Positions 33,234-61,493 of a stretch of DNA of 64,000 nt are shown one piece after another. The first letter of the stretch is position 1. Each line of letters begins with the position of its first letter. The stretch lies in the NCBI GenBank assembly GCA_964638715.1, contig CAZWZF010000008.1, positions 92,109-156,108 of the forward strand. The letters are read 5' to 3'. The notes beneath the pieces were generated by a model. The model worked only from the letters and a program-made list of their open reading frames with translations. It had not been told where the DNA came from and did not search any database. A program made the translations under genes and the position numbers. Origin of the DNA: an uncultured bacterium. GTDB lineage: Bacteria > Armatimonadota > Hebobacteria > CAIYQO01.

Positions 33234-34544
33234 TTAAATATTTGGCGGTGTTACCCATTCTTTATTTTTGCGGATTATAATGTTTTGTGGCGGTGCAAGC
33301 AAACGTGGTTTAATGTCTGCAAAATCAAGGGTGTTTGGCTGAGTATCGCCTTGTGCGCACATCGAGCCTGCCACACCTGCCGACTGTCCAATTTGCGCCA
33401 GGATACATTGCACCCGGTATGATGCCATCGCCAGATGAGTACCACTCATATGCTTACCGACCACCATTATGCCGTCATAATCACGTGGAATAAGTGAACG
33501 ATATGGTATGCCATAAGGCTGCGGTTCCGGGAAATCTGACATTCCTTTTACCTTTTCGCTCCAAATATCCACACTGCGCTGAGTAACATGCACGCTGTCA
33601 TCCGGCACAATACCATTAAAGATATCTTCACTGGTAATTACCTTTTCTCCCATTATACGCCATTGTTCCCGCACCCCAAGTTTTGGAGCAAGATGAACCG
33701 CGTAACCATTTTTTCTCAATAAGATAATATCTTCACTCATCATATTCAGAGCTTCCCGTTGCGCGGTTGCCAATATTCCCGGTTCGCGGGTATCAGCACA
33801 TCGCACTTTGCATCCCCAATGCAGATAAGCACCAATATTTCGTTCTTTCAATCCTTCTATATCGCCTTTAGGCCAACCCTCACCGGATTCCAGTGGAAAA
33901 GAGAGCTTTAATTGACGGAAATCAAAATGCGGTACATTACCGATTTTCTGGCTAATATATTTCCACGTGCATAATTGTACATGGTCAGTGCGTTCCATAG
34001 GAGCAACACCTTCGCCAAAATCGTCCCTGCTGTCTTCGCCATAACGTCCATCCATACCAGAATTAACGCAAAGATTGCCGACACCGGTCGCTTCAATGGT
34101 GACTTTCGCTTTTATCTGCTGTTCTTTGCCGTCCGCACCACGCCAGATCGCGCCAGTCACCCGGCGGCGATTACCGGCATCTTCCACCATCAGCCTTTCT
34201 ACCCGTACCCCACAACGAACAGTGATATTTTTTTCTGCCGTCAGCATTCGTGACAGTACCATCAGATAATCACCGGGCATATACCAAAAGTCCCACCATC
34301 TACCCGGTTTGCGCTCTGTCAGCGGATAGTTCTTGTCCAACTCATTGCATAACTCGGTAATTACACCTGACCGTGGACCGCCATCAAGCATCAGAACATA
34401 TTGATCCATTGCCGCGCCGCCGGGAACCGCGTCCTCTTCCAATAAAATTACTGATGCTCCGGCACGCGCCGCGCCAATTGCCGCCGGCCAACCCGCAGCA
34501 CCGGCACCTATAACTAAAACATCTGTTTCGACTATTGTATGCAT
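33234..34544 (-). CDS. FAD-dependent oxidoreductase (GxGxxG Rossmann N-terminus; PF12831-like family).
   Basis: DVLVIGAGAAGWPAAIGAARAGASVILLEED (dinucleotide-binding motif). C-terminal ...AQIGQSAGVAGSMCAQG parallels ...TGQAAGTAAALS in the right-end paralogs. Confidence 0.8.
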   Translation of the reverse strand: MHTIVETDVLVIGAGAAGWPAAIGAARAGASVILLEEDAVPGGAAMDQYVLMLDGGPRSGVITELCNELDKNYPLTERKPGRWWDFWYMPGDYLMVLSRMLTAEKNITVRCGVRVERLMVEDAGNRRRVTGAIWRGADGKEQQIKAKVTIEATGVGNLCVNSGMDGRYGEDSRDDFGEGVAPMERTDHVQLCTWKYISQKIGNVPHFDFRQLKLSFPLESGEGWPKGDIEGLKERNIGAYLHWGCKVRCADTREPGILATAQREALNMMSEDIILLRKNGYAVHLAPKLGVREQWRIMGEKVITSEDIFNGIVPDDSVHVTQRSVDIWSEKVKGMSDFPEPQPYGIPYRSLIPRDYDGIMVVGKHMSGTHLAMASYRVQCILAQIGQSAGVAGSMCAQGDTQPNTLDFADIKPRLLAPPQNIIIRKNKEWVTPPNI

Positions 34545-36920: not shown

Positions 36921-36992
36921 TAGAGGCTTTTGCTAAACCTTGATGGGACAGACACCTTCCTGGCTTCGCCATTCGGTGTCAGCCCCTGATTT
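36921..36992. repeat. ~72-nt conserved intergenic element, copy A, with internal dyad GACACC...GGTGTC. Candidate structured RNA, REP/MITE-like element or bidirectional terminator.
   Basis: tagaggcttttgctaaaccttgatgggacagacaccttcctggcttcgccattcggtgtcagcccctgattt versus copy B at 52287-52358, about 85% identical by eye. Confidence 0.5.
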
Positions 36993-37046
36993 ATACTCGA
37001 TTTTTAATTTAGATCAATAAAAAATTAGGTTTTACAACAGCCTGCG

Positions 37047-37072
37047 TAATTCGTAATTCCTAATTCGTAATT
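37047..37072. repeat. Tandem direct repeat TAATTCGTAATT-cc-TAATTCGTAATT immediately downstream of the 37083 stop. A third TAATTCGTA lies at 36914.
   Basis: Read directly. Lies in the promoter region of 34548..36863. Confidence 0.35.
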
Positions 37073-37082
37073 AATAATTCCT

Positions 37083-40000
37083 TCACTTCGGTCCCAGCGC
37101 GTTAACCACACACCGGAAACCTGTTGGTGTCCAGTCTCGCACATGTGGCGGATTAATAAACCTGGCGGCGGTACGACTTAATCTTTCATCATACAGGGAA
37201 CATCCGCCACGCAATACTTTGTGACTGCCAATTGCCGGACCGGTCGGATTTTTTGATGGTGATGATTTATAATATTCATAACCATACCAATCTGCTACCC
37301 ATTCCCATACGTTGCCGGCCATATCCATCACGCCATAAGGACTGGCCCCCTGCGGGTAACTTCCTACCGGACGGAAACCGGATGAAAACTTATACAAAGT
37401 CTCTTCCATGGATACACATTTTGTAGAATCCCATTTGTTGCCCCATGGATATTCACGACCATCAGTACCACGGGCAGCTTTTTCCCATTGTGCCTCGGTG
37501 GGTAACGCGGCGCCAACCGCTTTCGCGTAAGTATCGGCTTCATACCAACTCATCTGCACCGCATACGCACCTTCATCACCTTTGGGGTCAGCATACATTC
37601 CCTGTCCCCAAGTTGGAGTAAATGTTTTACCGGTTGCGTCGCAATATTTCTTGTATTGCGCGACTGTTACCGGATATTTATACATCCAGTAACCATCCAA
37701 ATAAATTTTTCGCTGTGGTCGTTCATCACCAGCACCTTTGCCATTGGGTGAACCACGCAGAAAATCACCCGCAGGTATCCAGATTAATTCCGCGCCATCC
37801 AATTCATTAACTGCCGTTGTTGTACTGGTAATTTTTATTTTAGGCGCAAATAACACTGCAGTCGTTTCAACAGTTGCGGTAGTAACCTGTTTTGCAACTG
37901 GAACAGTTTTGGCACTCAATACCTGAACCGGTAAATTTACTTCCGTCGCATCTTTTGCCGCAGAGGTGCCAATTAATGTTATCTGTAAATATGCTTTATC
38001 AACTACCGGTTTTAATTCGACAGCGTCCCAGCCATTAGCCGAAGTTGTAATAACCGCAGCAACACCATCACCACGGTCAAGTTGAATAACGATATCTCCA
38101 GTGGAGTTGGCAGTTATAGGAATATTGACCGGTTCCGCGTCAGAAACAGCAATAACATCATCAAACTTCTGGTCCATCGCATCCAAACCGGGTAATCTTT
38201 CTCCAGCTTTCATTCCTTTTATTCCGCCCGGTACAGCATATTGCAAGTCCAGCAACTTTGTGATGCCACCGCCGGTCACTGCGACTTTCGCAACCTTCGG
38301 GTTTGGCAACGCGAGCATCCATCGGGTAGTAAATCGGTTTGTTACAGCCAGACTGCCATTATATTTTCGATCAATCTGCATTCCAGTATCAGTAGTGCTT
38401 ACTACTCTATTCAGGTGATTTTTAGTATCAAATCCATAAAAAGGCTGGGAAAGGGTAAGGTCTGTTTCTAATTTATCTTTATTCGGATTTTGGAATTCAC
38501 TCCACACTGACGACCAGTCTTTATCAGAAATATTAGGGTATTTCAAATCATTTTTTGCTACATCTGCCGGCAGCCATATCATTGAACTAATTCTGGCAAA
38601 CTGGTCAAGATATCCGGCCTGTCCACCCTGAACCGCAAGTAATTCTTTCCCACTTTTTTTATCTATCGCGCTGGTGACTTGTCCTTTCAAATCAGGACAT
38701 ACCGCCACTGACATTGATTTTCCATCCAGTTCCACTACTGGTCCGCCGTTATTGGCAACATACCATGATATGGTGCGCAATACCCCGGCTTCACCGCCGC
38801 CATTCATGAAAGCGGCTTTTTTGGCACGGTCAAGACAACCAGGCACATTCGGGTCAGCACCGGCAACATACCATTTTTTATTATCTGCCGCATATTTCAC
38901 CATTCCCCAAGGATTACCGCTGTAAGACGCCGCATTTAGCGTAACCGCATCCAAAGAGCTTCCCCGCGCCTCTATCATATTGGCAAGCAAACGTTTATCT
39001 TCTTCTTTTTCTGCCGCTGCCAGTGCTTTATCCATTGCCACTGTCATTTTGGCTAATATAGTTGGTGAAAACATCTTCACGCGTGTTGTCGTGGTCCATC
39101 CGCTCCAGCGTACCGCACTGGGAACATGACCGCTGTCAGCATAGGCAGCCTGCGCAAGTTTCAGATACTCCCAAACATAAGGTGCTGCACCTTTACCATA
39201 ATTATCATCCAGGAACTGGCGAATAAGTTTATCAGCATCCTGGTCGGGGTTCCAGGCGAGTTTTAAATAAACCCATGAATACAGCCATTGCCAGTTATCA
39301 CTGCATAACTGCGGATTTGTGCCATAAATTCCGCATTCTTTCCAATATTTCATAATGTCGCTGAGGTAGAAAATCGCTGGCCATTCCGGTTGGTAAGGAA
39401 CCCAATGCCAGGTGGTTACCCGTCCGGGAGCGATTTTTGGCCATTCTTTCAGTGCTTTCGCGTAATCACGGTTTGCCGGGTTATTGGTAATCGGTCCTAC
39501 CTGGTCACCCGCCATATTCTGCGATCGCGCGCTTGATACCACATTAATCCACAGATTTTTATTGGGTTTAATAGTCTTTGGCGCATCAAGAGAGTCAAAA
39601 TATGCGAATGTGATTACCTGCTGGTCCGGGTCGGTCTTTTCTAAATCTTCCAACGCGCGGTTAAGCATCAGTATTAACGGTGCCGCCTCAGATTGTTCAT
39701 CATGCACTAACTTGCGGCAATTATCGCACATACACCCGGTAAAACCATCACCCTGGGCAGCAGGAATCGGCATTGCCGGATCAAATTTTGCCCCCATCTG
39801 TTTTTTTCTTATAGCAATCTGTTTTCGCAATGCATCCGCCAAGAATTTTGGCAAATCCGGATTTGTTCCGCATACACCCATACTCCATGGCGTCTCGCGC
39901 TGACCGGCTTTATTTAAAGGGTAAAAATCAGGATGTTCAGCAAACAAACCTTTTTCAGTAATATTTCCTTTGCCATCTTTCTTATCCTGTGGCGGCAATA

Positions 40001-40622
40001 AATCATAAAAATTATGTCCGGCGCCAAGATCACCGCTTACAGTATTGGCAGGATAACCCGCTCCACGATTCTGCAATATCCACGGGTAACTACCCATCCA
40101 GAAGATAAAACCGCGTTGAGCAAATGCAGGTTGCTGAAAATCATCAACATTTTTTATTGACAATGTCGTTTGTTTTGGCACTACTTCATGCCCCGGACCC
40201 CCGTATGACAATCCTTTCGCCTTAAAAGTGTAAAAACGACAGCCAAGATGATCTTCCAATAAACCCCATACCGCATATTGTATTCCAAGGTCTGATAAGG
40301 CCGAGAGAATTAATTTATCGCCATCAGTTCTGATACGATAGGCCTGTTTCCCCTTCGCGTCATCACTTGCACCGGGTAGTTTATCAACTTTTTCTATAAT
40401 GATAACTGCTTTATCCCGCAATTCGTCAGTCATCGATGCTGCCAATGGTAATTCAGCACCGGTAATCTGCTTCAGATATGACTGCAGATTTTTGGCAGGC
40501 TGCAAAAAACCATTGTGAACAATAGTCGCCTTAGTCACACCATTTTCAGCAAGCGTAATTGCCTGGGTGCTGATTACAAGGCAAAGTAACAGAAATACTA
40601 CCATCGCTTTACAAGTTGACAT
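37083..40622 (-). CDS. Large secreted DUF4838-like::FGE-sulfatase-domain fusion protein. AT-rich paralog of 1639..5244.
   Basis: Signal peptide MSTCKAMVVFLLLCLVISTQA. Collinear similarity to 1639..5244, including the C-terminal SUMF1-type motifs GNVWEWVADWY, RGGCSLYDERLSRTAAR and GFRCVVNALGP. LacI-type palindrome 18 nt upstream of the start. Confidence 0.8.
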   Translation of the reverse strand: MSTCKAMVVFLLLCLVISTQAITLAENGVTKATIVHNGFLQPAKNLQSYLKQITGAELPLAASMTDELRDKAVIIIEKVDKLPGASDDAKGKQAYRIRTDGDKLILSALSDLGIQYAVWGLLEDHLGCRFYTFKAKGLSYGGPGHEVVPKQTTLSIKNVDDFQQPAFAQRGFIFWMGSYPWILQNRGAGYPANTVSGDLGAGHNFYDLLPPQDKKDGKGNITEKGLFAEHPDFYPLNKAGQRETPWSMGVCGTNPDLPKFLADALRKQIAIRKKQMGAKFDPAMPIPAAQGDGFTGCMCDNCRKLVHDEQSEAAPLILMLNRALEDLEKTDPDQQVITFAYFDSLDAPKTIKPNKNLWINVVSSARSQNMAGDQVGPITNNPANRDYAKALKEWPKIAPGRVTTWHWVPYQPEWPAIFYLSDIMKYWKECGIYGTNPQLCSDNWQWLYSWVYLKLAWNPDQDADKLIRQFLDDNYGKGAAPYVWEYLKLAQAAYADSGHVPSAVRWSGWTTTTRVKMFSPTILAKMTVAMDKALAAAEKEEDKRLLANMIEARGSSLDAVTLNAASYSGNPWGMVKYAADNKKWYVAGADPNVPGCLDRAKKAAFMNGGGEAGVLRTISWYVANNGGPVVELDGKSMSVAVCPDLKGQVTSAIDKKSGKELLAVQGGQAGYLDQFARISSMIWLPADVAKNDLKYPNISDKDWSSVWSEFQNPNKDKLETDLTLSQPFYGFDTKNHLNRVVSTTDTGMQIDRKYNGSLAVTNRFTTRWMLALPNPKVAKVAVTGGGITKLLDLQYAVPGGIKGMKAGERLPGLDAMDQKFDDVIAVSDAEPVNIPITANSTGDIVIQLDRGDGVAAVITTSANGWDAVELKPVVDKAYLQITLIGTSAAKDATEVNLPVQVLSAKTVPVAKQVTTATVETTAVLFAPKIKITSTTTAVNELDGAELIWIPAGDFLRGSPNGKGAGDERPQRKIYLDGYWMYKYPVTVAQYKKYCDATGKTFTPTWGQGMYADPKGDEGAYAVQMSWYEADTYAKAVGAALPTEAQWEKAARGTDGREYPWGNKWDSTKCVSMEETLYKFSSGFRPVGSYPQGASPYGVMDMAGNVWEWVADWYGYEYYKSSPSKNPTGPAIGSHKVLRGGCSLYDERLSRTAARFINPPHVRDWTPTGFRCVVNALGPK

Positions 40623-40639: not shown

Positions 40640-40653
40640 TGTTAACGTTAACC
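40640..40653. promoter_or_regulatory. Candidate LacI-family operator TGTTAACGTTAACc (13/14 palindrome), 18 nt upstream of the 37083..40622 start.
   Basis: Sequence read directly. Central CG with TGTTAAC/GTTAACA half-sites fits the generic LacI/GalR operator TGnnAnCGnTnnCA. Confidence 0.55.
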
Positions 40654-40712
40654 TAATTTTTATTTAGACATTATTTTTGATAGATTGTTTTGGGAATTAT
40701 ATTCAAAAAAAA

Positions 40713-42848
40713 TTATTTTAAAAATTTTATACGAAAACGGAATAATGCATCTTCGTCATACCACATCGGAAAGTTTGAACCCCACACATTATTATAAAGA
40801 TTAAAATGCATTCCACCAGATAAATCAGGCAGAGATTTATCAAAATGCAATAATCGCGGATTCCCTGGCGCCACCAATGGCACATCCAATGTTTCCAACA
40901 TCAATTCGCCACTAACTATGGGACATCGCAATCCTGATTGCACAGCATGCAATGTTCTGTTTCCACCTTCTATTACATCCAGCGGTGATATCAATTCTCC
41001 CATTTTATCCATCATCCAGCTTTGAGGTTGTGGCACACAAGGTACGAATGAATACCATAATGCTTCAGGAAAACGACATGCAGGTTTATCGAACCACTGC
41101 AATTTTATTTCTACTATTGGGTTCTCATTGGGAAAGGTATATGTAATATAAATTTCCCGCGGAGCACCATACTCGTCAGAGCACCATACAGGAAATTCTA
41201 CTTTTATTAATAATTCTGAGTCTTTATCAGTTTCTTTACATCCTGCCCAGGTCATCACAGGTTTTACCATACATGACTTTGCACCGTCTTCATTAATTCC
41301 CGGCTTGTTGAAATCATGTTGTGCCCAGGCGGAATTTGTCCACTCAGGTGTAAAATTCACATCCATATTAATCAGATATTCTTTCATAAATTGCGCGTAA
41401 TCATCCTCATTAAAAGTTTGATATCGCATTAATCCCAATGGATTGTTTATTCCGGCTAATTCTACAGCAGTCGCCTTATTAATGAATGAACTCAATGCCC
41501 CGGTTTCAGGATCAAGAGAAATTTTAAAATTAGCTGTATTAAATATTCCATCGCATTTCTGATATTTTTTTTGTTCTGGCAGTGTTGGAATTAACGAATC
41601 TAACTCTGCTATTGCTTCTGTTGACAATTCAGAATTAGATGCCAATGATTTTAATGCGTCAGATATATATTTTCGTTGTTCTACCCATGAATCTGAAAAC
41701 TTCTTGAACTTCGGCGTTTTTCTGGCAATTTCAAATTCTTCTTTACGATAACTTTTATCTTTATTAAACAACTGTCCGAACGGTAATGGTTCATCCGCCG
41801 GCAAATGCGTTTTTTCATCCATTCCCCAGGTGTGTTCCGGTATCAGCAAAATATTTCTACTGAATGCATGGTAAATCGGATCATCCCATGAAACTCGTTC
41901 ATTATGTTCCCATTCAGTCCGCAATCGGCAAAGTGAACGATAAGCCGCAACCTTTGCCGGGTCAGTACCTGCGCCATGTATCCAGGTATCACCTATTTCA
42001 CTATTTATCACCGGTAATCTGTCGCGAATATCTTCAATATTTTCAGCAAACGCATCCATTGTAGATGCCATTACCTGATGCCCGGGGAATTGTTCTTTTA
42101 AATAGTTATATTTTGCCAGTATTGCATCTGCGGTTGGCGGTCCGGCATTATCACCCTGGTGAGCAAATGCCAAGACATTTTTTCCTCCGGGAATAACCTG
42201 TACATCTCCGTAACCGCCGGTTTGATACATAACCACAACTTCATCACCACCCGGCGAACACCAGCGAAAAAGCGGCGGAACCTGTGGCGGTGAACATACC
42301 GGATTAACGCCGATATGCAAAAACTTAACACCGGCCTCGGCAAGATATGGAACCATTGCCCGGGTATGTCCAGGCACATCAGTCATCTTGACGGCAATTG
42401 TTTTATGCCCAAATCTTTTATCAAGAGTCTGCGATAACGACAGTCCAAATTTGAATAATGCCGGATCCATTAATTCGGTATGAGTAGTGAATGGCAGCGC
42501 GTGCCAAGTTATATCACCGGCAGCAATGGCAAATTCCAATTTTCTGCGATTTTTAGTATTTGCCTGCTCAAGATATTCATATATCAGCCATGAACCGGTG
42601 GTCCATACCAGCCTTTCTTCACCACCGCGTTGCCGCAATTCATTTGCTGTTTCAATAGCCTGGGGCAACAGCACATTAAAATATCTATCCACTACAGATT
42701 GTGCGCTGTCAGTAAATCCTACATCAAGATGTGATTTAAATATGATATGCACCACTGACTGCAAATTCGCTTGCATATCAGTTTTTTTATTTAATATCTT
42801 TATTGGTGTTGGACTAACGGTCTTAGTCATTTTTAATTTATCCTTCAT
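40713..42848 (-). CDS. Putative glycoside hydrolase of the GH38/GH57-like (polysaccharide-deacetylase-fold) type, no signal peptide.
   Basis: N-terminal IIFKSHLDVGFTD resembles the HSH-x-D-x-GW metal-binding start of GH38 N-domains. Long ORF in operon context. Weak family call. Confidence 0.4.
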   Translation of the reverse strand: MKDKLKMTKTVSPTPIKILNKKTDMQANLQSVVHIIFKSHLDVGFTDSAQSVVDRYFNVLLPQAIETANELRQRGGEERLVWTTGSWLIYEYLEQANTKNRRKLEFAIAAGDITWHALPFTTHTELMDPALFKFGLSLSQTLDKRFGHKTIAVKMTDVPGHTRAMVPYLAEAGVKFLHIGVNPVCSPPQVPPLFRWCSPGGDEVVVMYQTGGYGDVQVIPGGKNVLAFAHQGDNAGPPTADAILAKYNYLKEQFPGHQVMASTMDAFAENIEDIRDRLPVINSEIGDTWIHGAGTDPAKVAAYRSLCRLRTEWEHNERVSWDDPIYHAFSRNILLIPEHTWGMDEKTHLPADEPLPFGQLFNKDKSYRKEEFEIARKTPKFKKFSDSWVEQRKYISDALKSLASNSELSTEAIAELDSLIPTLPEQKKYQKCDGIFNTANFKISLDPETGALSSFINKATAVELAGINNPLGLMRYQTFNEDDYAQFMKEYLINMDVNFTPEWTNSAWAQHDFNKPGINEDGAKSCMVKPVMTWAGCKETDKDSELLIKVEFPVWCSDEYGAPREIYITYTFPNENPIVEIKLQWFDKPACRFPEALWYSFVPCVPQPQSWMMDKMGELISPLDVIEGGNRTLHAVQSGLRCPIVSGELMLETLDVPLVAPGNPRLLHFDKSLPDLSGGMHFNLYNNVWGSNFPMWYDEDALFRFRIKFLK

Positions 42849-42853
42849 CTTTC

Positions 42854-42881
42854 GTAGAGACGCATGGCCGTGCGTCTCTAC
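42854..42881. repeat. Hairpin repeat GTAGAGACGCA-TGGCCG-TGCGTCTCTAC (11-bp perfect arms) in the 29-nt gap between GH31 stop and next start.
   Basis: Read directly. The right arm contains the GH31 stop codon. Second copy at 45326-45353. Confidence 0.6.
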
Positions 42882-45292
42882 ATATTTAATAAAATTACCA
42901 CCTTGAACGGGTCACCGGATTTAATTTCCGGCAGGTGGAACTGGTAACGATTTTCAGTATCTATTTTTTTACAATTAATTTCAATATCACCATTTAAAAA
43001 TGCTGACAGCGGCAATTTGTCTAATGAAACATCAATAGTTATTTGTCGTATCCCACCTAATGGCTTTCCTTCAATTACCTTTCCGGCAATCTCAATTATG
43101 TTATTATTTTTACGCATATTGAATCGCGTTCTGCAAAAATCACCTTGCTTATAATCGGGCGAACGTCCATCATCTTCGTATAATTCGGCACATCCTTCTG
43201 CACCGGGATATACATCAAGTAACAGATGCTTAATATGGGCTGCATGAATATTGTCATCCGACGATTGCCGTGGGATAATGCTGCCTGCTTTTACATATAC
43301 CGGTACTTCAGACAATTCCACATTACGGGTTATTTCTTGACCGCCGGAGACAATCTTTGCCGTCTCAAACTCGTACCATTCCCCTTCGGGAAGATAAATG
43401 GTTCGTTCCTTATCCGTTGATAATACCGGCGCAACCAGCATATCAGGTCCAAAATAAAACTCGTCAAAACGATAACCTGCATTATTCTCTGGCTCCATCA
43501 GGTATAGACCGCGGGTGATGGGCATACCAGTGTCGTAACAGGTACGGGATGCAGTGTAAATATACGGCAGCAAACTATGGCGTATTCGCAACCATCGCCG
43601 GCATTCACCATTCAATTCAGTATCATAATCATAGGGTTTGCGACTGCCGGAACCTGGTGCGCAGTGAAAACGCATAATAGGGTTAAATACCCCGAATTGC
43701 AGCCAGCGTAGATATAACTCCGGTTTAATAATCTTTTCACCCGATCTATTAGTCGTTAACTGACTCGGAGCCAGGCAAAATCCACCCATATCATGACTGA
43801 TATTGGATACGCCTACCCCGCTGGCGCGGATATTGAACTCGCATTGCAACCGCAGCACATCAAAGTCGGACGTTGTATCGCCAGTGAAAAAGCCGCCATA
43901 ACGGTGCGAACCAAAACCACCATATCTCCCCAATAGCATCCCTCGCCGTCCATCACGTTCTGACTCTTCAAAGAAAGTCTTGTTTGTTACTAACTGTCCA
44001 TGTGTTGTGGTCAATTGCCCGCGCGAACCATCGTTCCACCAGTAATCCAATCCGTCATTAATTATGTGGGTGTGGCACACTTTGCGGAATGCGGTATTCT
44101 GTGCTTTATTGCAGATATCAACCTTCGCCATTCGCAGCGTTTTGCCATTATATTCGCGGGTATTTATCTCTACATCGGGTCCGGCTTGTTTTATATATTC
44201 ATCAAAATGACTGTCATCATCACGCACATCCAAAGGATGGTCGTTGAATGTGACATCAAGATTATATTTGCGGCAAAATGCGAAAAATCGCTGCGGGTCG
44301 GGTATTAATTCGGGGTTATATTCCCAATGCCCCCAACCTTCTTTGTGCCATTCCATGTCCATTACCAAAGTTGACAATGGGTAGCCATTAGCAGCAAAAT
44401 CATGTGCCATCTCAGTAATTTCATCCTCGCTGAAAGCGGGCCAACGAGAAAAAATTATGCCATAATCTTTATGAGGTAATACTGGAACCGGCCCGGACAG
44501 CAATCTAAAGTCCTGCAACGCTTGAAGGTAATTCTTGCCATACGCGAAAAAATACCAGTCCTGATAACCGGGTTTATCGCGTTCTATTGGAAAGTCGTCT
44601 TCATCCATTACCGCACCTTCAGAATCATTCAACAGATAATACCCGCTTCTGGATAAAACACCCGGACAAAACTTTCGTGATACTTTGTACCAGTTGAAGG
44701 TGCGCTCGGTATATTTGCCATCATTAAATTGCTGCTGCGCGTCACGCAACCAGTGACCACGACCAAAATTAGCAGGAGCATCTGGGTGCAAGTCTACATA
44801 CAACGGATCAATCTCGCACTGCAGCCATGCCGGCCAGGTAGTGCCGCCGGGATCTGGCGATTCCATTGTTGCGGTTTGCACACCATCTAATACACACGAC
44901 TCACCACCATATCTATCCAAACTGCGCAGCGTGCCACCGAGATTCTGATAATCCCGATCACCGGGACGCCATATCTGCATCAGTTTGCCGTCGTTCCATC
45001 GTAACTCCAGATTATTGCGGTTACACGGCTTATCATTATCAATTGTACGAATTTGCATCGCGCCAGTATCCAACACATCCCATTTACCATCGCGTGTAAT
45101 TGCAGTGAAAGCTACTGGTTGCTGCTGATTATAAGCGACCATGCTACGCCGGTCATCAAAAATGCCATCTGGTGAAAATTCTATTCTCACCAGTGTTGGG
45201 GAGAGGCATATAAAACGGCGATGACCGATAACCACCGCCGCTGAGTTCACGAAATTATTATCTTTTTTTACATCCGAATATGGAATTGTCAT
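42878..45292 (-). CDS. Glycoside hydrolase family 31 (alpha-glucosidase/alpha-xylosidase-like).
   Basis: LVMDMEWH matches the GH31 catalytic-nucleophile region (WiDMnE). Typical GH31 C-terminal beta-sandwich pattern (YLPEGEWYEF). The track start at 45337 is a TTG inside a hairpin repeat, so the start was moved to the ATG at 45292 (MTIPYSDVKK). Confidence 0.8.
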   Translation of the reverse strand: MTIPYSDVKKDNNFVNSAAVVIGHRRFICLSPTLVRIEFSPDGIFDDRRSMVAYNQQQPVAFTAITRDGKWDVLDTGAMQIRTIDNDKPCNRNNLELRWNDGKLMQIWRPGDRDYQNLGGTLRSLDRYGGESCVLDGVQTATMESPDPGGTTWPAWLQCEIDPLYVDLHPDAPANFGRGHWLRDAQQQFNDGKYTERTFNWYKVSRKFCPGVLSRSGYYLLNDSEGAVMDEDDFPIERDKPGYQDWYFFAYGKNYLQALQDFRLLSGPVPVLPHKDYGIIFSRWPAFSEDEITEMAHDFAANGYPLSTLVMDMEWHKEGWGHWEYNPELIPDPQRFFAFCRKYNLDVTFNDHPLDVRDDDSHFDEYIKQAGPDVEINTREYNGKTLRMAKVDICNKAQNTAFRKVCHTHIINDGLDYWWNDGSRGQLTTTHGQLVTNKTFFEESERDGRRGMLLGRYGGFGSHRYGGFFTGDTTSDFDVLRLQCEFNIRASGVGVSNISHDMGGFCLAPSQLTTNRSGEKIIKPELYLRWLQFGVFNPIMRFHCAPGSGSRKPYDYDTELNGECRRWLRIRHSLLPYIYTASRTCYDTGMPITRGLYLMEPENNAGYRFDEFYFGPDMLVAPVLSTDKERTIYLPEGEWYEFETAKIVSGGQEITRNVELSEVPVYVKAGSIIPRQSSDDNIHAAHIKHLLLDVYPGAEGCAELYEDDGRSPDYKQGDFCRTRFNMRKNNNIIEIAGKVIEGKPLGGIRQITIDVSLDKLPLSAFLNGDIEINCKKIDTENRYQFHLPEIKSGDPFKVVILLNM

Positions 45293-45325
45293 AAAATTAA
45301 ATCCCTGATTTATACATATTTTTTC

Positions 45326-45353
45326 GTAGAGACGCAAAATCTTGCGTCTCTAC
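45326..45353. repeat. Second copy of the hairpin repeat, GTAGAGACGCA-AAATCT-TGCGTCTCTAC, upstream of the GH31 gene. A partial third right arm (CGTCTCTACAG) sits at 45388-45399.
   Basis: Read directly. Arms identical to the 42854 copy, spacer differs. Confidence 0.6.
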
Positions 45354-45393
45354 AGAACAGATATTATTTTTGACTATCGCAAAATAGACGTCT

Positions 45394-46353
45394 CTACAGT
45401 TCCGATTGAACAAACCTTACTTCTGCCAAGCGCATACTATTGTCGCCAAAGTTTGATGTTATTACCATTTTGACCCATTTTGCCTTTGTTGATCCGCCGG
45501 TAAATGGATAAAATTGCGCCCGCCATGTTGATTGCGTTTCATTTCTAAACTCAGCAGGTGCACCATTTACCGCTGTGTATGTTCCATTCAAGTTGGTTGT
45601 AGCATCAATTGATGATGTCAAGGTTATCCCTTTTACTGCCCGGTTTGGATAAGAAGTGCCTTCATAATAGTTCCAGATACAGATACCAGACAAATTATAA
45701 TTATCACCAAGATTAAATAAAATGTATTTATTTAACGCGCATTGCCATACTTTTGCTGTTAAGTAGCTATGGTCAGGCCAGGTTGATGGAGCTTGGTCAC
45801 CTGTATTCAACGGCTTGGTTAATCCTTCGCCATCAATAGCTAATAAAGGTGTCCCGGAGTCAGAATATGCAAATACCGGCTTAACTATAGTCCATTTGTA
45901 TGGATCACCCAATGAGCAATGACCATCAACAAAACTTTTGATTACTTTACCGCTATGGCGCGCATCAATATCATTATCTTTGCCATCCATTGTCAGCCAG
46001 GTTGCGCTGGTATCAGGTATAGTACCAACGGCCATATTTGAACATTTAACAGCATTGTAAATAAAGCCTGGCAATACAGTTCTGCCGGCAGACGGACAAA
46101 TTTTTATACCATCATCAACACTGATACTGGTCCAGAATGTTGTGGAAGATGGTAATATCTCCTGATGGTCCTGGCAATACATTTGTGCGGATACTGCTAT
46201 TTGCCTCTGGTTGCTCATACAGGTTGTTTGCCGCGCTTTTTCTCGTGCCCGGGCAAACACCGGGAACAGTATGGCGGCCAAAATGGCAATTATGGCAATC
46301 ACGACCAGCAGTTCAATAAGGGTAAAACCTTTTCGTGAATTAAATTTATACAT
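45394..46353 (-). CDS. Prepilin-type N-terminal cleavage/methylation domain protein (DUF1559 pseudopilin-like) with C-terminal discoidin/F5-8 type C (CBM32-like) domain.
   Basis: N-terminus [44 protein letters not shown] (class III signal/pilin motif G-F-T-L-I-E). DUF1559 H..DGH motif (VDGHC). C-terminus ...WVKMVITSNFGDNSMRLAEVRFV is discoidin-like. Confidence 0.8.
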   Translation of the reverse strand: MYKFNSRKGFTLIELLVVIAIIAILAAILFPVFARAREKARQTTCMSNQRQIAVSAQMYCQDHQEILPSSTTFWTSISVDDGIKICPSAGRTVLPGFIYNAVKCSNMAVGTIPDTSATWLTMDGKDNDIDARHSGKVIKSFVDGHCSLGDPYKWTIVKPVFAYSDSGTPLLAIDGEGLTKPLNTGDQAPSTWPDHSYLTAKVWQCALNKYILFNLGDNYNLSGICIWNYYEGTSYPNRAVKGITLTSSIDATTNLNGTYTAVNGAPAEFRNETQSTWRAQFYPFTGGSTKAKWVKMVITSNFGDNSMRLAEVRFVQSEL

Positions 46354-46389
46354 AAAATTTCCTCCTCAAAGAAATATGAACGATAATAA

Positions 46390-47403
46390 TTAAGGCGTGT
46401 AGACGAATCGAACTTCACCAAGCCCGGCACCACCACCCCAATGTGAATTGATATATATTTTTACCCATTTAGCTTTTGTAGCTTGTCCGCTAAATGTATA
46501 ATATTGTGCTTTCCACGGATTCGTTGTTTCATTGCCAAATTCAATAGGTGCTCCAGGAATTACAGCCCATACACCATCTGAACCATTTGTTGAATCTAAT
46601 GATGAACTGATAGTTACCGACCTGAGTGATCGGTTTGGCCATGAGGAATTTTCATAATAATTCCAGATAGTGATACCGGTAAGATTGTATGTACCGCCCA
46701 GATAATAAACTATCCAATTTCCACTACTCGACGGCCACCAATAATTTTCATTACCTCCAGAGCCGGAATTGGTTTGAGTTGGCCAGGTTAAAGGTATTGA
46801 ATCTCCGGTGCTTAATGCTTTCGATAATCCAATGCCGTCAGTAGTAGCAGCAAATGAAGAACCTCGTGTACCTGCGGCAGGACCACTGGTTGCCACACAA
46901 GTCGGCTGAATAATATAGTATTGAAATGGTTTCGATGCCGCACAATGACCGTCAACATAGCTAAGTACCAGATTTCCACTGTGACGCGGGTCCATAGCGT
47001 CATTTTTTCCATCGCAGGTCAACCATACAGCTGACGCGTCCGGTATTTTTAACGGGTCGCCGATGGCGGTACCTGAACATATAGCAGCATTATAAACATA
47101 TCCGGGCAGGACATCCCTGCCTGCTGTCGGGCATATCTTCACCCCATCATCAACTTTTATATCATTCCAGAAAGTTGCTGATAAAGGCAGCGTTTCGTCA
47201 TGGTCCTGCGCGAACATCTGAACCGATGCAGATATTTGCCGCTGATTACTGGTACAGGTAGTCTGCCGTGCTTTCTCCCGCGCCCGGGCAAATACCGGGA
47301 ACAATATCGCGGCCAAAATGGCAATAATGGCAATCACAACCAGAAGTTCAATCAGCGTAAATCCTGATTTTCGTTTGCCACATTTGGAATAGTGATGATA
47401 CAT
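46390..47403 (-). CDS. DUF1559 pseudopilin-like protein with C-terminal discoidin (CBM32-like) domain. Tandem paralog.
   Basis: [44 protein letters not shown] and ...WVKIYINSHWGGGAGLGEVRFV. Perfect TGTTAACGTTAACA palindrome 29 nt upstream of the ATG. Confidence 0.8.
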   Translation of the reverse strand: MYHHYSKCGKRKSGFTLIELLVVIAIIAILAAILFPVFARAREKARQTTCTSNQRQISASVQMFAQDHDETLPLSATFWNDIKVDDGVKICPTAGRDVLPGYVYNAAICSGTAIGDPLKIPDASAVWLTCDGKNDAMDPRHSGNLVLSYVDGHCAASKPFQYYIIQPTCVATSGPAAGTRGSSFAATTDGIGLSKALSTGDSIPLTWPTQTNSGSGGNENYWWPSSSGNWIVYYLGGTYNLTGITIWNYYENSSWPNRSLRSVTISSSLDSTNGSDGVWAVIPGAPIEFGNETTNPWKAQYYTFSGQATKAKWVKIYINSHWGGGAGLGEVRFVYTP

Positions 47404-47431
47404 AATAAATACCCCCTTAATAAAAATATTT

Positions 47432-47445
47432 TGTTAACGTTAACA
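47432..47445. promoter_or_regulatory. Candidate LacI-family operator TGTTAACGTTAACA (perfect 14-nt palindrome), 29 nt upstream of the 46390..47403 start.
   Basis: Read directly. Followed (minus sense) by AAGGGGGT Shine-Dalgarno and ATG. Confidence 0.6.
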
Positions 47446-47587
47446 GAATATTGCTAATATTAATTATACCACTGTGTTTGTATGGTGTAAATAGGAATTT
47501 AAAAGAATTTAAAAATAAAAAATCGGGGTGGCTTGCACACCTTAATAGGCAATAGAGCCACCCCTAAATAATTGTATTCGATTCAGA

Positions 47588-48730
47588 TTATTGCAGAATT
47601 CCCCATTTTTTCTTCAGGTATTCATATATGATATTGCTATCAGATGTTGATAATGCAGGAGAGAAACACAATACTTCTGAAACATCACCTGTATAATAAT
47701 CACCACCTTGCATTCCTCGTTTGCCAACACTAAATCCATAGATTGAATAATTGTTGGTAGTAGGAATGCTGCTAAAAACGCAGACACCAGCACCTGGGCC
47801 TGCCTGAATAGCATCTTTTGTTAACTGTTTTGGTGTCAGATAAAAACCACCTGTATTTTCATAATCAGAATAATAAGTTCCGCCATTTAATCCACCGGCA
47901 CCGACAATACGACCCATTTGAGTTGCGTTAGGACTGTTTGATACTGTAAATACACTCCACTTTGCTGACTGGGTTGCACCCACTGCACGAAAATCTACTT
48001 GCATACCACAATTAGTAACACCAGAAAATGATATTGTCGGTTTGCCATTCATCCCTGTTGCTGACAATATCGGCGAAATAGTAGCAGGAGTCAAATCACG
48101 TGCTTTACCAGACTGGTCTTTCCATAAAGTAACCGCACCAGTTGTTGCATTTGCTACAACACCCATATCTGCCATTACCCAAAATTGCAAATTATTCTTT
48201 GATATCGGACATGGTACAAGGTCAAATGAACTGCCTGCCTCGGAATGACCATCTACATAGCTGGCGACAGCCTTGCTGCTATGCCGATTAGTGTCAATGT
48301 CAGTTACAGAGTTTAATATATTTACACCACCCGCGCTATCTGCAGTCATTAGCACTTTTGCTGGGTTATCAATATCACTTGTTACCCGGTCTGACAGCCA
48401 ACTATTATAACCATATACAGAAATAGAGTTATCACCACTTTTAGAAGCAGACGGACATTCCCAAGATTTGCCGGAAATGCCATTGCTGCCGCCTAATGAA
48501 GTTTTCCATGTGCCGCTATTAGGCAATCGCTGTTCGTGGTCCTGCGCATACATAGTCATAGCTATCGCTAATTGCCTCTGGTTGCTGGTACATACCGTCT
48601 GTCGGGATTTCTCACGCGCCTTGGCGAATACCGGGAATAATATCGCGGCCAAAATGGCAATTATGGCAATCACGACCAGAAGTTCTATCAGGGTAAAACC
48701 CTTTCCTTCTGTTTTGTTTAACGTTATCAT
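47588..48730 (-). CDS. DUF1559 pseudopilin-like protein with C-terminal LamG/ConA-like lectin domain. Tandem paralog.
   Basis: [44 protein letters not shown] and C-terminal ...[30 protein letters not shown] (LamG-like ending). Confidence 0.8.
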
Positions 48731-48753
48731 TATCAGTCTCCTCTTAATTTATT

Positions 48754-48800
48754 GTACCAGATGGTACGGTCAGTAATCAATTATCGCAGTTTGCGATAAT
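48754..48800. promoter_or_regulatory. Two short inverted repeats, GTACCA-GA-TGGTAC and ATTATCGCA-GTT-TGCGATAAT, in the 74-nt spacer between DUF1559 genes 4 and 3.
   Basis: Read directly. Could be an internal terminator/attenuator or an operator within the array. Confidence 0.3.
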
Positions 48801-48804
48801 CATG

Positions 48805-49950
48805 TTAAAGTGCGTATTTCGCCTTTAAATATGCCATTACTTTATCAATATCGCTTTGAGACATATCATCGTGATAACACAATATTTCACAAACTTGCAT
48901 TATAGGACTTTTATCAGGATTTTCCCATCCAAGTGTAAGAGGACTAACAACACTGACAGTACGAAAACGTCCAACTCCAAATAGTGATGTTTTTCTGGTT
49001 GGTGTGATTTTTACTGTTGCTGCATTAAAAGCTAAAGGGAATGGACCTGTTGTATCTGTCCAACTAATTGAAGTGCCATTTGCGACATCTGGTGCACAGC
49101 CTTTTAAAATAGTGCCAGTCTGACATTTATCTGTCATGTTGTATACTGTAAAGCATGTAAAAGTAGATATAGAAAGTGGTGTTGCCATTAGACTGTTTGT
49201 TCCCGCCCCTGAATTGTTTTGAATAGTTGTAAATGCGGAATAACCATTTAAGGCACTGGGAGTAACAGTAGCACCGTTTCCGGCAGGATAAAGATCATTT
49301 TTATAACCAGATTCATCAGACCATTTTTTCAAAATACTACTACCACCAGAGGTAATATTCTCCGGCATCAACCAGAGTACCAGATGTCCAGATACCGGCG
49401 GAAGGCGTAACTTTAGTGTATTTGATGTGCCAACAACAACGTGGCCATCTAATGCTGACATGATGGCTTTACCCGAATGTCTTTCTGCTATTAATACCTG
49501 GTTATAGATACATCCAGGAACTTGATATGATGAATTAGTGGTTTGTACCAGAGAATCGCCGGTTAGTAATATTCCCGACGGGTCATCTATTTCGCCTATC
49601 GATGCTGGTTGACCGGTGGATGTTTTACCCAGAAACTGGTTGTAACCATATTCCGGTTTACCGGCACTACCCTCGTCATTCGTGGTCGGACAATCAAATA
49701 TTTTCGGGTCCAATCCGGTTAGCGCAAGCGTCCAACCCTCGGCGGGCGGCAATGTTTCTTCATGATCCTGTGCATACATCATCATAGATGCTGCCAATTG
49801 TTTTTGGCTGTTAGTGCATGTGGTCTGATTAGCCTTTTCTTTTGCCCTGGCAAACACCGGGAAAAGTATCGCCGCTAAAACAGCAATAATGGCAACTACA
49901 ACTAATAGCTCTATCAGTGTAAAACCATGCGAATGAGCATTATTTTTCAT
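48805..49950 (-). CDS. DUF1559 pseudopilin-like protein with C-terminal LamG/ConA-like domain. Tandem paralog, first of the array.
   Basis: [38 protein letters not shown]...VCEILCYHDDMSQSDIDKVMAYLKAKY. TGTTAACGTTAACA palindrome 26 nt upstream of the ATG. Confidence 0.8.
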   Translation of the reverse strand: MKNNAHSHGFTLIELLVVVAIIAVLAAILFPVFARAKEKANQTTCTNSQKQLAASMMMYAQDHEETLPPAEGWTLALTGLDPKIFDCPTTNDEGSAGKPEYGYNQFLGKTSTGQPASIGEIDDPSGILLTGDSLVQTTNSSYQVPGCIYNQVLIAERHSGKAIMSALDGHVVVGTSNTLKLRLPPVSGHLVLWLMPENITSGGSSILKKWSDESGYKNDLYPAGNGATVTPSALNGYSAFTTIQNNSGAGTNSLMATPLSISTFTCFTVYNMTDKCQTGTILKGCAPDVANGTSISWTDTTGPFPLAFNAATVKITPTRKTSLFGVGRFRTVSVVSPLTLGWENPDKSPIMQVCEILCYHDDMSQSDIDKVMAYLKAKYAL

Positions 49951-49975
49951 AATCCCCCCCTTGTAAAAATAAAAT

Positions 49976-49989
49976 TGTTAACGTTAACA
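49976..49989. promoter_or_regulatory. Candidate LacI-family operator TGTTAACGTTAACA (perfect), 26 nt upstream of the first DUF1559 gene (48805..49950).
   Basis: Read directly. Identical to the 47432 site. Confidence 0.6.
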
Positions 49990-50081
49990 GATATTATAAA
50001 TTTATAATAGCAGAATGTGTCATAAATGTCAATAGATTTTTTGTCGAGCATTAATAAATTTTACGTCAAGCTATTACTTGA

Positions 50082-51290
50082 TTATATTATATTTTTATCT
50101 CTATTAAACTTTTTGGCTGGTCCGGTTGAGTTCCGCGGAATAAAGGATGTAGGGAGAGTAATTCTTTGTATTTCTTTGTTATGTTCAATTATCTGACGAA
50201 TCAGCATGCGGGTGGCTTCGCGGCCAACATCTGCTAATGGCAGGTTGGTAGTGGTGACATTTATCCCTTTCACCGGGTCAAGTACCGGAAAACTGTCATC
50301 ATGCCCCACTAAACTGATATCTTCCGGCACGCTAATTCCCTGTTGTTTAAGGTCATTATATATCATTTGTGCCATATAATCATGATGGGTAAAAACTGCG
50401 GTAATTTGTGGATTGGTAATTAGGAATTTATTAAATGCAGTCATACTGGCAATGGGATAATCCCAATCCCATGGACAGGCGTACAAAGCAGAATCCGCGT
50501 CGATGCCGGCATCCATTAGCGCTTTGCCATATCCTGCCAACCGTTGCTGGTAACAATAATATTGTGATTGCTGCTCTGGGAAATGCAGAAAATGCCGGTG
50601 ACCGAGTTCTATCAAATGCTGCATTGCCGCGTAAGCGGAAGACGCGTCATCGGTTAATATCGCAGAACATCCATCCGTAGGTTCAATAATTGTAACGATA
50701 GGCCGGTCAAAAAAGTTGGACTCAGCACGCAGCATATTAACGATATACGCTTGTTCATGTGGTTTTGCCTGCAGCAATGCACCGTCTATATCACCATGGC
50801 AAAATACAGCAGGCAAAGATTCAATCATGTCATAAGGAAACAACTCTTCATCTGTTTTACCTGGCCATATTAACGATTCTATCAACTCAGTTACAGGTTC
50901 CTCTTCTGAATGAGGATAACTGACATAATTAGTATGAACGGAATATCTTTTCAACACCGCAACTGTCATTATACTGTCAAAAATCGGACCATAATAAGCT
51001 GATGCCGGATATCGGGTAAACAATGGCGGAAAAAACAACCCGATGGTATGATTTAACGCGGTAATGCCATGTCGGCGAAGTACCATCTGCCGCGCCATTT
51101 GATTTCGAGCCGGGTCATATCCAAGTCTTTTAGCCACTGCCAGTATCTTCTCACGTGTCTTAGCGGCAACATAACTGCTGCCATTCAACGCCCGTGAAGC
51201 AGTCATCACACTTACGCCGCATTCCTCAGCAACGCTATGCAGATTAACCTGTGAATCCTGAACTTTTTGTTTTTGAGTCGACTTGGCCAT
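50082..51290 (-). CDS. LacI-family transcriptional regulator.
   Basis: N-terminal HTH VNLHSVAEECGVSVMTASRALNGSSYVAAKTREKILAVAKRLGY, then a periplasmic-binding-protein-like sugar-binding domain. An imperfect copy of the palindrome lies 18 nt upstream of its ATG. Confidence 0.85.
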   Translation of the reverse strand: MAKSTQKQKVQDSQVNLHSVAEECGVSVMTASRALNGSSYVAAKTREKILAVAKRLGYDPARNQMARQMVLRRHGITALNHTIGLFFPPLFTRYPASAYYGPIFDSIMTVAVLKRYSVHTNYVSYPHSEEEPVTELIESLIWPGKTDEELFPYDMIESLPAVFCHGDIDGALLQAKPHEQAYIVNMLRAESNFFDRPIVTIIEPTDGCSAILTDDASSAYAAMQHLIELGHRHFLHFPEQQSQYYCYQQRLAGYGKALMDAGIDADSALYACPWDWDYPIASMTAFNKFLITNPQITAVFTHHDYMAQMIYNDLKQQGISVPEDISLVGHDDSFPVLDPVKGINVTTTNLPLADVGREATRMLIRQIIEHNKEIQRITLPTSFIPRNSTGPAKKFNRDKNII

Positions 51291-51307
51291 GTGTACCCCA
51301 TTTAATA

Positions 51308-51321
51308 TGTTAACGTTATTA
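51308..51321. promoter_or_regulatory. Imperfect copy TGTTAACGTTAtta upstream of the LacI-family gene itself (autoregulation candidate).
   Basis: 12/14 match to the palindrome, 18 nt upstream of the LacI ATG at 51290. Confidence 0.45.
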
Positions 51322-51425
51322 TACCGGTTTGATAAAATATTAGCAAGTTAATGATTAGAGAACTTTCTCTCTGTATGTCCTGTTATATATTAAACTTCAG
51401 CCAATAATGTTATAATTTCAGCCAG

Positions 51426-52289
51426 ATGAATAACAAACCATTTGAAAAATATTCTTTAGCGGAATTGCGACGGATTACCGCTTTGCTGACTAATATTATC
51501 CCGACAATTTCCCTTGGGTCGCGGTATATTCGGTTACGCGATTTGCGGCTTCATTATTCTCCTGCTAATGTTTCATCCGGTCAGCATACTCATGATACAT
51601 CAGAAGCAGTTCTTTTATTATCCGGTTCAGTTACATATACCTGGCAAGTTCCACATTTGCTAAATATTGGCGGATCTATTGTTTTCCCTCCTGATTGTAT
51701 GCATGAATGGAATACTGACGATAATGACGCTTTACGATTTGTTTTCTGGTACGAAGATGATTTATTAAAGAATTATCAGGATACCCAACAATCACCTCAT
51801 CGTCCAGAGTTAGCATGGGAAACGCGCGCTTTATTCAATGACGTGCGTGAAGCCCGCCCAGGTTGGCGATTCCGTTCACAGGCTCGTTTAGGTGTAATTC
51901 TTTCCGAATTATTAGCATTGCAACATACAGTAACATTAGCCAGTGACATGATATCGCAACAAGATTATTCAACATCTGTTGATGCATTTATTCGTGCTAA
52001 TTATTTTAAACCGCTAACCTTAAAAGAAATAGCGGATGCTATCGGAATTAGCGAACGAACATTATCCCGTCGATTCAGAGAAGAAACCGGCGTTAGTGTA
52101 ATGCATAAATTAGATGTTTTTAGAATGGAAAAAGCCGGTGAATTGCTTGTTGATACCATTTTGCCTTTAAGTGAAATAAGCAAGTTAATCGGAATAATTC
52201 ATCCAGGCTATTTTGCTATAAAATTTAGACATTACTCAGGAATGACTCCTTCTCAATATAGGCAATTCCACCGATCTGGAAAATTATAG
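51426..52289 (+). CDS. AraC-family transcriptional regulator (N-terminal cupin-type sensing domain, C-terminal double HTH). Only plus-strand gene.
   Basis: LKEIADAIGISERTLSRRFREETGVSV...SEISKLIGIIHPGYFAIKFRHYSGMTPSQYR is a canonical AraC HTH pair. Confidence 0.85.
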   Translation: MNNKPFEKYSLAELRRITALLTNIIPTISLGSRYIRLRDLRLHYSPANVSSGQHTHDTSEAVLLLSGSVTYTWQVPHLLNIGGSIVFPPDCMHEWNTDDNDALRFVFWYEDDLLKNYQDTQQSPHRPELAWETRALFNDVREARPGWRFRSQARLGVILSELLALQHTVTLASDMISQQDYSTSVDAFIRANYFKPLTLKEIADAIGISERTLSRRFREETGVSVMHKLDVFRMEKAGELLVDTILPLSEISKLIGIIHPGYFAIKFRHYSGMTPSQYRQFHRSGKL

Positions 52290-52358
52290 AGGCTCTTACA
52301 AAACCCGGTGGGACAGACACCATCATGGCTTCGCCACTCGGTGTCAGTCCCTGATTTT
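52287..52358. repeat. Copy B of the ~72-nt conserved intergenic element. It starts at the AraC stop codon and lies between convergent genes.
   Basis: tagaggctcttacaaaacccggtgggacagacaccatcatggcttcgccactcggtgtcagtccctgatttt, followed by a T-rich run. Confidence 0.5.
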
Positions 52359-55272: not shown

Positions 55273-55295
55273 ATTGTTCCTCTTTCATTATTCTT

Positions 55296-59184: not shown

Positions 59185-59185
59185 C

Positions 59186-61008: not shown

Positions 61009-61018
61009 GCTTCGCTCC

Positions 61019-61471: not shown

Positions 61472-61493
61472 CTTTTGGTAAATCCTTTCAATA

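Follow-up and report, generated by a model that had tools for sequence, protein, structure and literature searches.

A 64-kb window on contig CAZWZF010000008.1, from an uncultured bacterium, contains several intergenic copies of a 14-nt palindrome, TGTTAACGTTAACA (generalised TGnTAACGTTAnCA), clustered beside a gene that encodes a regulator of the LacI family (lacI, 50082..51290). In the most probable reading, to which we give a probability of about 0.85, the palindrome is the operator of the repressor encoded by this gene. The predicted regulon would comprise one repressor, four (possibly five) operators, four transcription units and about eight genes, so that DUF1559 pilin-like lectins would be tied to a GH31 alpha-glycosidase, a DUF5054 protein and a DUF4838::FGE fusion under one presumed sugar signal. 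The features discussed below are listed in Table 1.

The palindrome is an even-length 14-bp inverted repeat whose two halves, TGTTAAC and GTTAACA, meet at a central CG. Copies were sought in the window and in up to 21 kb around the loci of its relatives, and expected counts at up to two mismatches were obtained from dinucleotide-preserving shuffles (n = 100). The window holds five matches with at most two mismatches against 0.11 expected, a number reached by 0/100 shuffles, and eight with at most three mismatches against 2.33 expected. Two of these copies are perfect (O2 and O3), one agrees with the palindrome at 13 of 14 positions (O4, TGTTAACGTTAACC) and one, near lacI, at 12 of 14 (O1, TGTTAACGTTATTA), just as the initial annotation of this stretch had described. 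These four strong sites are all intergenic and directly upstream of minus-strand genes, in a window that is 94% coding and 6% non-coding with about 50% G+C, and they are confined to the 11 kb adjoining lacI. When a symmetrised position weight matrix was scanned over the window, they scored 19-23.6 bits and all other matches at most 17.4 bits. The distance from the site to the start codon is 25 nt for O2 (ATG at 49950), 28 nt for O3 (ATG at 47403) and 17 nt for both O4 (ATG at 40622) and O1 (ATG at 51290), with site centres at -24.5 to -35.5; the close upstream placement given in the initial annotation is correct, and its values (26-29 nt for the perfect copies, 18 nt for the lacI copy) need slight adjustment. 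A match with three mismatches (TGATAACGTTAAAC, 48716-48729) overlaps the ATG of the pilin-like gene 47588..48730 and may be a weak fifth operator. A two-mismatch match at 25434 lies inside the signal-peptide coding part of the open reading frame 19881..25490 and is probably due to chance, and a match at 13819 lacks the central CG. The matrix scan of the window found no site at the sulfatase, PL8 or GH29 genes, nor at the other DUF4838::FGE gene (1639..5244). Of the two paralogues of this architecture in the window, a single one has the candidate LacI operator.

Alternatively, the palindrome may be a repeat with no regulatory role. As GTTAAC is present in it twice and AACGTT once, it could be recognised by a restriction or methylation system, or it may have been duplicated together with the promoters of the pilin-like genes. 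The four pilin-like genes are indeed paralogues with 5' ends that are 70-83% identical (repeat family D1), and a stretch of 43 nt around O2 is 77% identical to its counterpart around O3 (repeat family D8), which may explain the identity of those two copies. Nevertheless, O1 and O4 precede unrelated genes. Moreover, AACGTT (14 occurrences against 11.9 expected in the window) and GTTAAC (20 against 11.2, the operator copies making up the surplus) show no avoidance or enrichment once the operators are set aside, and their other occurrences are scattered in coding sequence. The initial annotation had considered that a restriction- or methylation-type motif at random positions would speak against a regulon, but the two hexamers are unskewed and the strong sites all intergenic. 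With the conservation of the sites in relatives (see below), these observations make a non-regulatory repeat very improbable.

The position of the sites relative to the predicted promoters is informative about their mode of action. A scan of 36.8-52.5 kb for sigma-70-like promoters ranked three candidates at the top, all on the minus strand, and these are exactly the ones beside O1, O2 and O3. O1 shares the TAAT of the -10 box TATAAT of the lacI promoter and its deviating half is that -10 box; the left half of O1 thus departs from the consensus (TATAATAACGTTAACA) because it is shared with the promoter. The other two operators start a short distance downstream of the -10 boxes of P2 and P3, and a predicted intrinsic terminator between them closes the transcription unit of the pilin-like genes A and B (pilA-pilB) and parts it from the next unit. 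Positions at or after the -10 box are those of repressors, and since O1-O3 lie at or just past their -10 boxes, their geometry is that of repressor sites. This geometry is also relevant to another possibility, namely that the sites belong to the divergent AraC-family regulator or mediate activation instead of repression. The AraC gene is adjacent, another AraC gene is found near a LacI paralogue of 35% identity, and the -35 hexamer (TTAACG) of a weak promoter-like site on the plus strand (51310-51338) falls within O1. Yet the usual sites of AraC-family proteins are direct or asymmetric repeats located before the -35 box, and 14-bp CG-centred palindromes downstream of the -10 box are atypical for them. 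Besides, two loci of relatives (L007 and L009) carry the motif and no AraC gene was called on these short contigs, and activation is at odds with sites located at repressor positions. Control by the AraC-family protein, or activation, therefore has very little to recommend it. Under the LacI hypothesis, the repressor might also damp the AraC gene via O1.

The assignment of the lacI product to the LacI family, made in the initial annotation, is borne out by its Pfam domains, a LacI helix-turn-helix (HTH; PF00356, residues 17-60, 53.5 bits) followed by Peripla_BP_3 (PF13377) and Peripla_BP_1 (PF00532) matches, and by its resemblance to the solved structures of CcpA, PurR and LacI; the annotated pseudopilin-lectins and DUF4838::FGE fusion are likewise correct according to Pfam. 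The HTH and hinge align with residues 4-59 of E. coli LacI. The protein exceeds the usual length in the family by about 60 residues, contains an 18-residue insertion (VTELIESLIWPGKTDEEL, residues about 134-151) that only it and its 92% identical relative possess, and has no evident C-terminal tetramerisation helix. Few homologues were found. A scan of metagenome contigs with the LacI alignment gave no relatives and a scan of genome contigs gave two loci only.

The initial annotation had proposed phylogenetic footprinting as a check, and the sites are kept in the loci of several relatives (L006, L013, L014, L016, L007/L008 and L009/L010). A palindrome with the core TAACGTTA adjoins the LacI gene in relatives whose LacI is 92-95%, 58% and 48% identical to that of the window, and in these relatives it precedes orthologues of the window targets (a pilin-like gene, GH31 and DUF4838::FGE). 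In the closest loci (L006, L013 and L014, LacI 92-95%), TAATAACGTTAACA is fused to the -10 box of the lacI promoter; O1 is invariant and the -35 and -10 boxes are conserved (intergenic alignment A3), while the flanks and the spacing from O1 to the ATG vary around it. A perfect palindrome is also kept ahead of the next gene in these three loci. O2 is conserved in L006 (alignment A4) and O3 in L013, where the gene order differs in that the lectin pilin directly follows lacI. In the sister genome represented by L016, O4 is exactly kept as GGTTAACGTTAACA ahead of DUF4838::FGE, while the sequence to its left and right carries substitutions. In the otherwise diverged intergenic alignments, no other invariant stretch is as long as the palindrome. 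More distantly, in the G+C-rich loci L007/L008 (LacI 58%), TGGTAACGTTATCT is located in the gap that separates lacI from the GH31 orthologue and TGATAACGTTACCT directly adjoins a nearby TATAAT box, and in L009/L010 (LacI 48%), TGTTAACGTTACCA overlaps the -10 box of a TTGACC-17-TATACT promoter 20 nt before the GH31 orthologue. That nothing in the intergenic alignments is better conserved than the sites, and that they are kept at 48-58% regulator identity before GH31 instead of a pilin gene, are further arguments against a non-regulatory repeat. In L007 and L010, the GH31 orthologue (67% and 52% identical, respectively) immediately follows the LacI orthologue, and the operator is located between the two genes. 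Since GH31 is next to LacI in both the 58% and the 48% loci, the LacI-GH31 pair is the conserved core of the putative regulon; judging from these loci, the lineage of the window later acquired the pilin-like genes with their operators. No site with up to three mismatches was detected at a 72% identical DUF4838::FGE homologue in loci that do not carry this LacI (L017-L019), which serve as a negative control, nor at the locus of the 35% LacI paralogue (L015).

The link between the motif and the regulator also emerges from their joint variation. The residues V28-M29 of the HTH, which correspond to Tyr17-Gln18 of LacI, are invariant in the clade with the AACGTT core, whereas a paralogue of 36% identity (P0006) has Lys-Ile at these positions and a switched core, TACCGGTA. 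Four intergenic TGkTACCGGTAwCr palindromes surround this paralogue, one of them behind the TTGACA-17-TACTAT promoter of a pilin-like gene. As motif core and HTH residues change together, it can be argued that each LacI recognises the palindrome adjoining it. The palindromes around the 36% paralogue are at 6105-6118, 7437-7450, 12499-12512 and 19642-19655 of locus L011, in which the regulator gene adjoins two pilin-like genes plus GH123, GH172 and GH127 genes; this locus has the appearance of a sister regulon in which the specificity has been swapped naturally. Promoter geometry, footprinting and HTH co-variation together support what the initial annotation had suggested, namely that the pseudopilin-lectins and the FGE fusion belong to one regulon with an autoregulated repressor.

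One could instead imagine that the sites are boxes similar to the catabolite-responsive element (cre), bound by a global catabolite-control regulator of the LacI family encoded elsewhere. The palindrome resembles the Firmicute cre consensus (TGWAANCGNTNWCA), with which it agrees at 13/14 positions. The site scan covers the 64 kb and the relatives' loci, and global regulators of the LacI family do exist (PMC4052901). Nevertheless, despite the many carbohydrate genes of the window, strong sites occur only in the 11 kb beside lacI; in addition, the motif accompanies the LacI orthologues into high-GC relatives and shifts jointly with the HTH residues in the paralogue. Control by such a global regulator consequently seems improbable, and the local repressor is preferred.

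Several observations weigh against the operator hypothesis or complicate it. O4 has no recognisable sigma-70-like promoter in the 36.8-52.5 kb scan, which makes its mode of action uncertain; convincing promoter hexamers are also absent from the conserved block that precedes it. O4 is probably a roadblock within a long transcript or the operator of a weak internal promoter. The 48% orthologue has no autoregulatory site at up to four mismatches, and the only candidate for such a site at the 58% orthologue is a degenerate TGGTAACGCTATCC with four mismatches. The two perfect copies lie within partly similar promoter cassettes and are not fully independent observations. With regard to the protein, the hinge helix (residues about 60-70) was aligned as YDPARNQMARQM, with a two-residue insertion and Met69 at the position of a conserved Leu; Leu or Met is found at the equivalent position in more distant paralogues. 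In the structures of PurR, LacI and CcpA, the hinge-helix Leu inserts into the central CG step, and recognition of the operator centre may differ in detail from that of these three proteins. Finally, the scan is limited to 64 kb and the relatives' loci, and a larger or global regulon with sites elsewhere is possible.

If the preferred reading is correct, a repressor dimer would bind the four operators when the inducer is absent. At O1, it would cover the -10 box of its own promoter, a case of negative autoregulation. O2 and O3 are located at about +8 to +24 relative to two sigma-70 promoters that come close to the consensus; through O2, the repressor would control the pilin-like genes A and B, and through O3 a unit made up of the pilin-like lectin C, pilin-like gene D, GH31 and DUF5054. 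At O4, it would either act as a roadblock to transcription into DUF4838::FGE or control a weak internal promoter. Binding of a sugar or oligosaccharide derived from the pathway to the periplasmic-binding-protein-type sensor domain would then free the repressor, and the pilin-like lectins would be induced together with three glycosidase-type enzymes, all part of a larger island for the utilisation of sulfated glycans. That the protein binds the sites, that it represses instead of activating and which compound induces the system are inferences, and the response to sugar is proposed by analogy with the family. In view of the conserved LacI-GH31 core, the substrate or product of GH31 is the likely inducer.

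This arrangement is close to what is known of the family. A survey of LacI-family factors found even palindromes as their motifs, with a central CG in those of 1173/1303 factors; 72% of the factors are autoregulated, about 90% are local regulators of sugar utilisation and more than 75% of the sites are located 30-140 bp upstream of start codons (Ravcheev et al. 2014, PMC4052901), a range at whose near edge the window sites are found. The window system has in common with the local LacI/GalR regulons (GalR, RbsR, ScrR, MalR, AglR; PMC4052901) the combination of an HTH_LacI domain with a type-I periplasmic-binding-protein sensor, the even CG-centred palindrome, operators that coincide with or follow the -10 box of neighbouring catabolic operons, the negative autoregulation (predicted here) and a glycoside hydrolase as core target. 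In contrast to them, its host lineage is outside the coverage of that survey, its targets include four DUF1559 pilin-like proteins rather than ATP-binding cassette (ABC) or phosphotransferase transporters, and its regulator has the hinge insertion, the Met for Leu and the approximately 60 extra residues described above. The comparison with E. coli LacI and lacO is also instructive: steric repression from an operator just past the -10 box, as in E. coli, is predicted for the window, but the window operators are 1.3-6.8 kb apart and control separate promoters instead of being auxiliary looping operators, the window regulator is predicted to be autoregulated, and its tetramerisation helix is not evident. 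With respect to CcpA of the Firmicutes, the window operator is nearly a cre box and CcpA is among the best PDB matches of the regulator. Internal cre sites acting as roadblocks are known and provide a possible analogy for O4. Unlike CcpA, the window regulator is local, with sites only in the operons neighbouring its gene in the 64-kb window, and no HPr or Crh co-repressor context was seen in the window.

Table 1. Predicted features of the candidate LacI regulon and its surroundings (window coordinates)
Feature	Position	Strand	Details
lacI promoter, TTGCTA-17-TATAAT	51318..51346	-	10/12 match
O1, candidate autoregulatory operator	51308..51321		reads TAATAACGTTAACA on minus strand
LacI-family gene, 402 aa	50082..51290	-	Pfam and PDB matches
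Promoter P2, TTGACA-17-TATTAT, TG extension	50004..50032	-	11/12 match, best of the region
O2, candidate operator, perfect	49976..49989		starts 14 nt after -10 box, roughly +8 to +21
Pilin-like gene A, N_methyl motif	48805..49950	-	Pfam
Pilin-like gene B, N_methyl + DUF1559	47588..48730	-	Pfam
Intrinsic terminator	47517..47564	-	9-bp G+C-rich outer stem, then U-run; -23.8 kcal/mol, z = -4.1
Promoter P3, TTTACA-17-TATAAT, TG extension	47463..47491	-	11/12 match
O3, candidate operator, perfect	47432..47445		starts 17 nt after -10 box
Pilin-like lectin gene C, N_methyl + DUF1559 + F5/8 type C	46390..47403	-	Pfam
Pilin-like gene D, N_methyl + DUF1559	45394..46353	-	Pfam
GH31 alpha-glycosidase	42878..45337	-	Pfam; start called on source contig corresponds to 45292
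DUF5054 protein, same transcription unit as GH31	40713..42848	-	Pfam; synteny kept in sister contig
O4, candidate operator, 13/14	40640..40653		17 nt ahead of DUF4838::FGE ATG, within 90-nt gap
DUF4838::FGE-sulfatase-domain fusion, last regulated gene	37083..40622	-	Pfam
58-nt hairpin element after last regulated gene	36935..36992	-	repeat family D3
AraC-family gene, divergent	51426..52289	+	Pfam

Among the genes of the putative regulon, the nearest solved relative of GH31 (7wj9) is annotated as an alpha-xylosidase, and both GH163 and the GH185 6-sulfo-beta-GlcNAcases have DUF4838 as their catalytic domain (PMC10570127). DUF1559 is of unknown function and makes up the largest such paralogous family in Planctomycetes-type genomes (PMC10632474). 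The co-regulation of DUF1559 pilin-like lectins with glycosidases by a sugar sensor, as predicted from the operators, is of modest interest. LacI paralogues beside pilin-like genes recur in relatives, both in L011, where a distinct palindrome precedes the pilin-like gene, and on the contigs of P0003 and P0008. One may tentatively speculate, although this is rather doubtful, that the DUF1559 proteins are substrate-inducible lectins displayed on a pilus or pseudopilus that capture glycans, in the role played elsewhere by SusD-like or ABC solute-binding proteins. If so, substrates could be assigned to individual DUF1559 proteins through the LacI operators, which would provide the first regulatory means of doing this. 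The mechanism itself would be a textbook LacI-type switch and bring no new principle; its value is in the annotation and in the DUF1559 lead, as a concrete testable regulon for an uncultured freshwater polysaccharide degrader. The placement of this host is uncertain. The nearest reference metagenome-assembled genome is labelled Armatimonadota and comes from Lake Mendota, judging by its isolate name, and the DUF4838::FGE homologues are labelled Planctomycetota or Kiritimatiellae. The taxonomy is insecure because homologues of host genes carry Planctomycetota labels, and the host may be described as a freshwater lineage binned as Armatimonadota with a gene content similar to that of the Planctomycetes-Verrucomicrobia-Chlamydiae group.

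The 58-nt hairpin element behind DUF4838::FGE is likely to be the 3' boundary of the regulated unit. A second copy, 86% identical and in direct orientation, is at 52300-52357; the two fold at -26.3 and -30.7 kcal/mol (z = -4.0 and -4.9) and flank an entire 15.3-kb block with the AraC gene, lacI, the pilins and the glycosidases. They are probably the terminators of two minus-strand units, and they could also be the borders of an inserted module. Rfam gave no family match in 36.5-52.6 kb. Within the operon, GH31 is bracketed exactly by two identical hairpins (42854-42881 and 45326-45353) with 11-bp stems (GTAGAGACGCA-N6-TGCGTCTCTAC), which fold at -18.8 and -20.6 kcal/mol (z about -7) and have no following U-run on the coding strand. 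A half-copy is present near 45388-45398, and the hairpins are kept in sister genomes (L013, 4198-4267; L016, about 1075-1105). They could be elements similar to repetitive extragenic palindromes, serve in the processing or stabilisation of mRNA, or be bound by a second regulator. Another inverted repeat, TTATCGCA-AAC-TGCGATAA at 48780-48798, overlaps a promoter-like TTAACA-17-GATAAT upstream of the pilin-like gene 47588..48730 and is a possible operator of another regulator or a small hairpin. Just past the stop codon of DUF4838::FGE, a short tandem repeat (37040-37075) is composed of GAATTAC/GGAATTAC units that read as ttacgaattaggaattacgaattacg.

Apart from the putative regulon, the carbohydrate genes of the window include six sulfatases, a PL8 lyase, a GH29, a heparinase-like protein and two more DUF4838 proteins. 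The three DUF4838 (GH163/GH185-type) proteins are encoded at 1639..5244, 34548..36863 and 37083..40622; two of the three have a C-terminal FGE-sulfatase domain and the remaining one is fused to a CBM9. The DUF4838::FGE architecture is widespread (more than 100 clusters, 35-92% identity) and apparently uncharacterised. Upstream of the 15.3-kb block, a minus-strand block at 52436-63994 encodes four paralogous FAD-dependent oxidoreductases (PF12831; a fifth is at 33234..34544), two URO-D-like proteins (a third is at 28550..29611), an RraA-like aldolase, a DUF386 protein and an unannotated protein of 369 aa. This enzyme set is unusual and uncharacterised, and possibly under the control of the AraC regulator. 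Finally, 19881..25490 encodes a secreted protein of 1869 aa for which Pfam gives nothing beyond a weak CBM9. It is directly downstream of the PL8 lyase, which is 67.6% identical to one encoded near the 58% LacI orthologue in L007.

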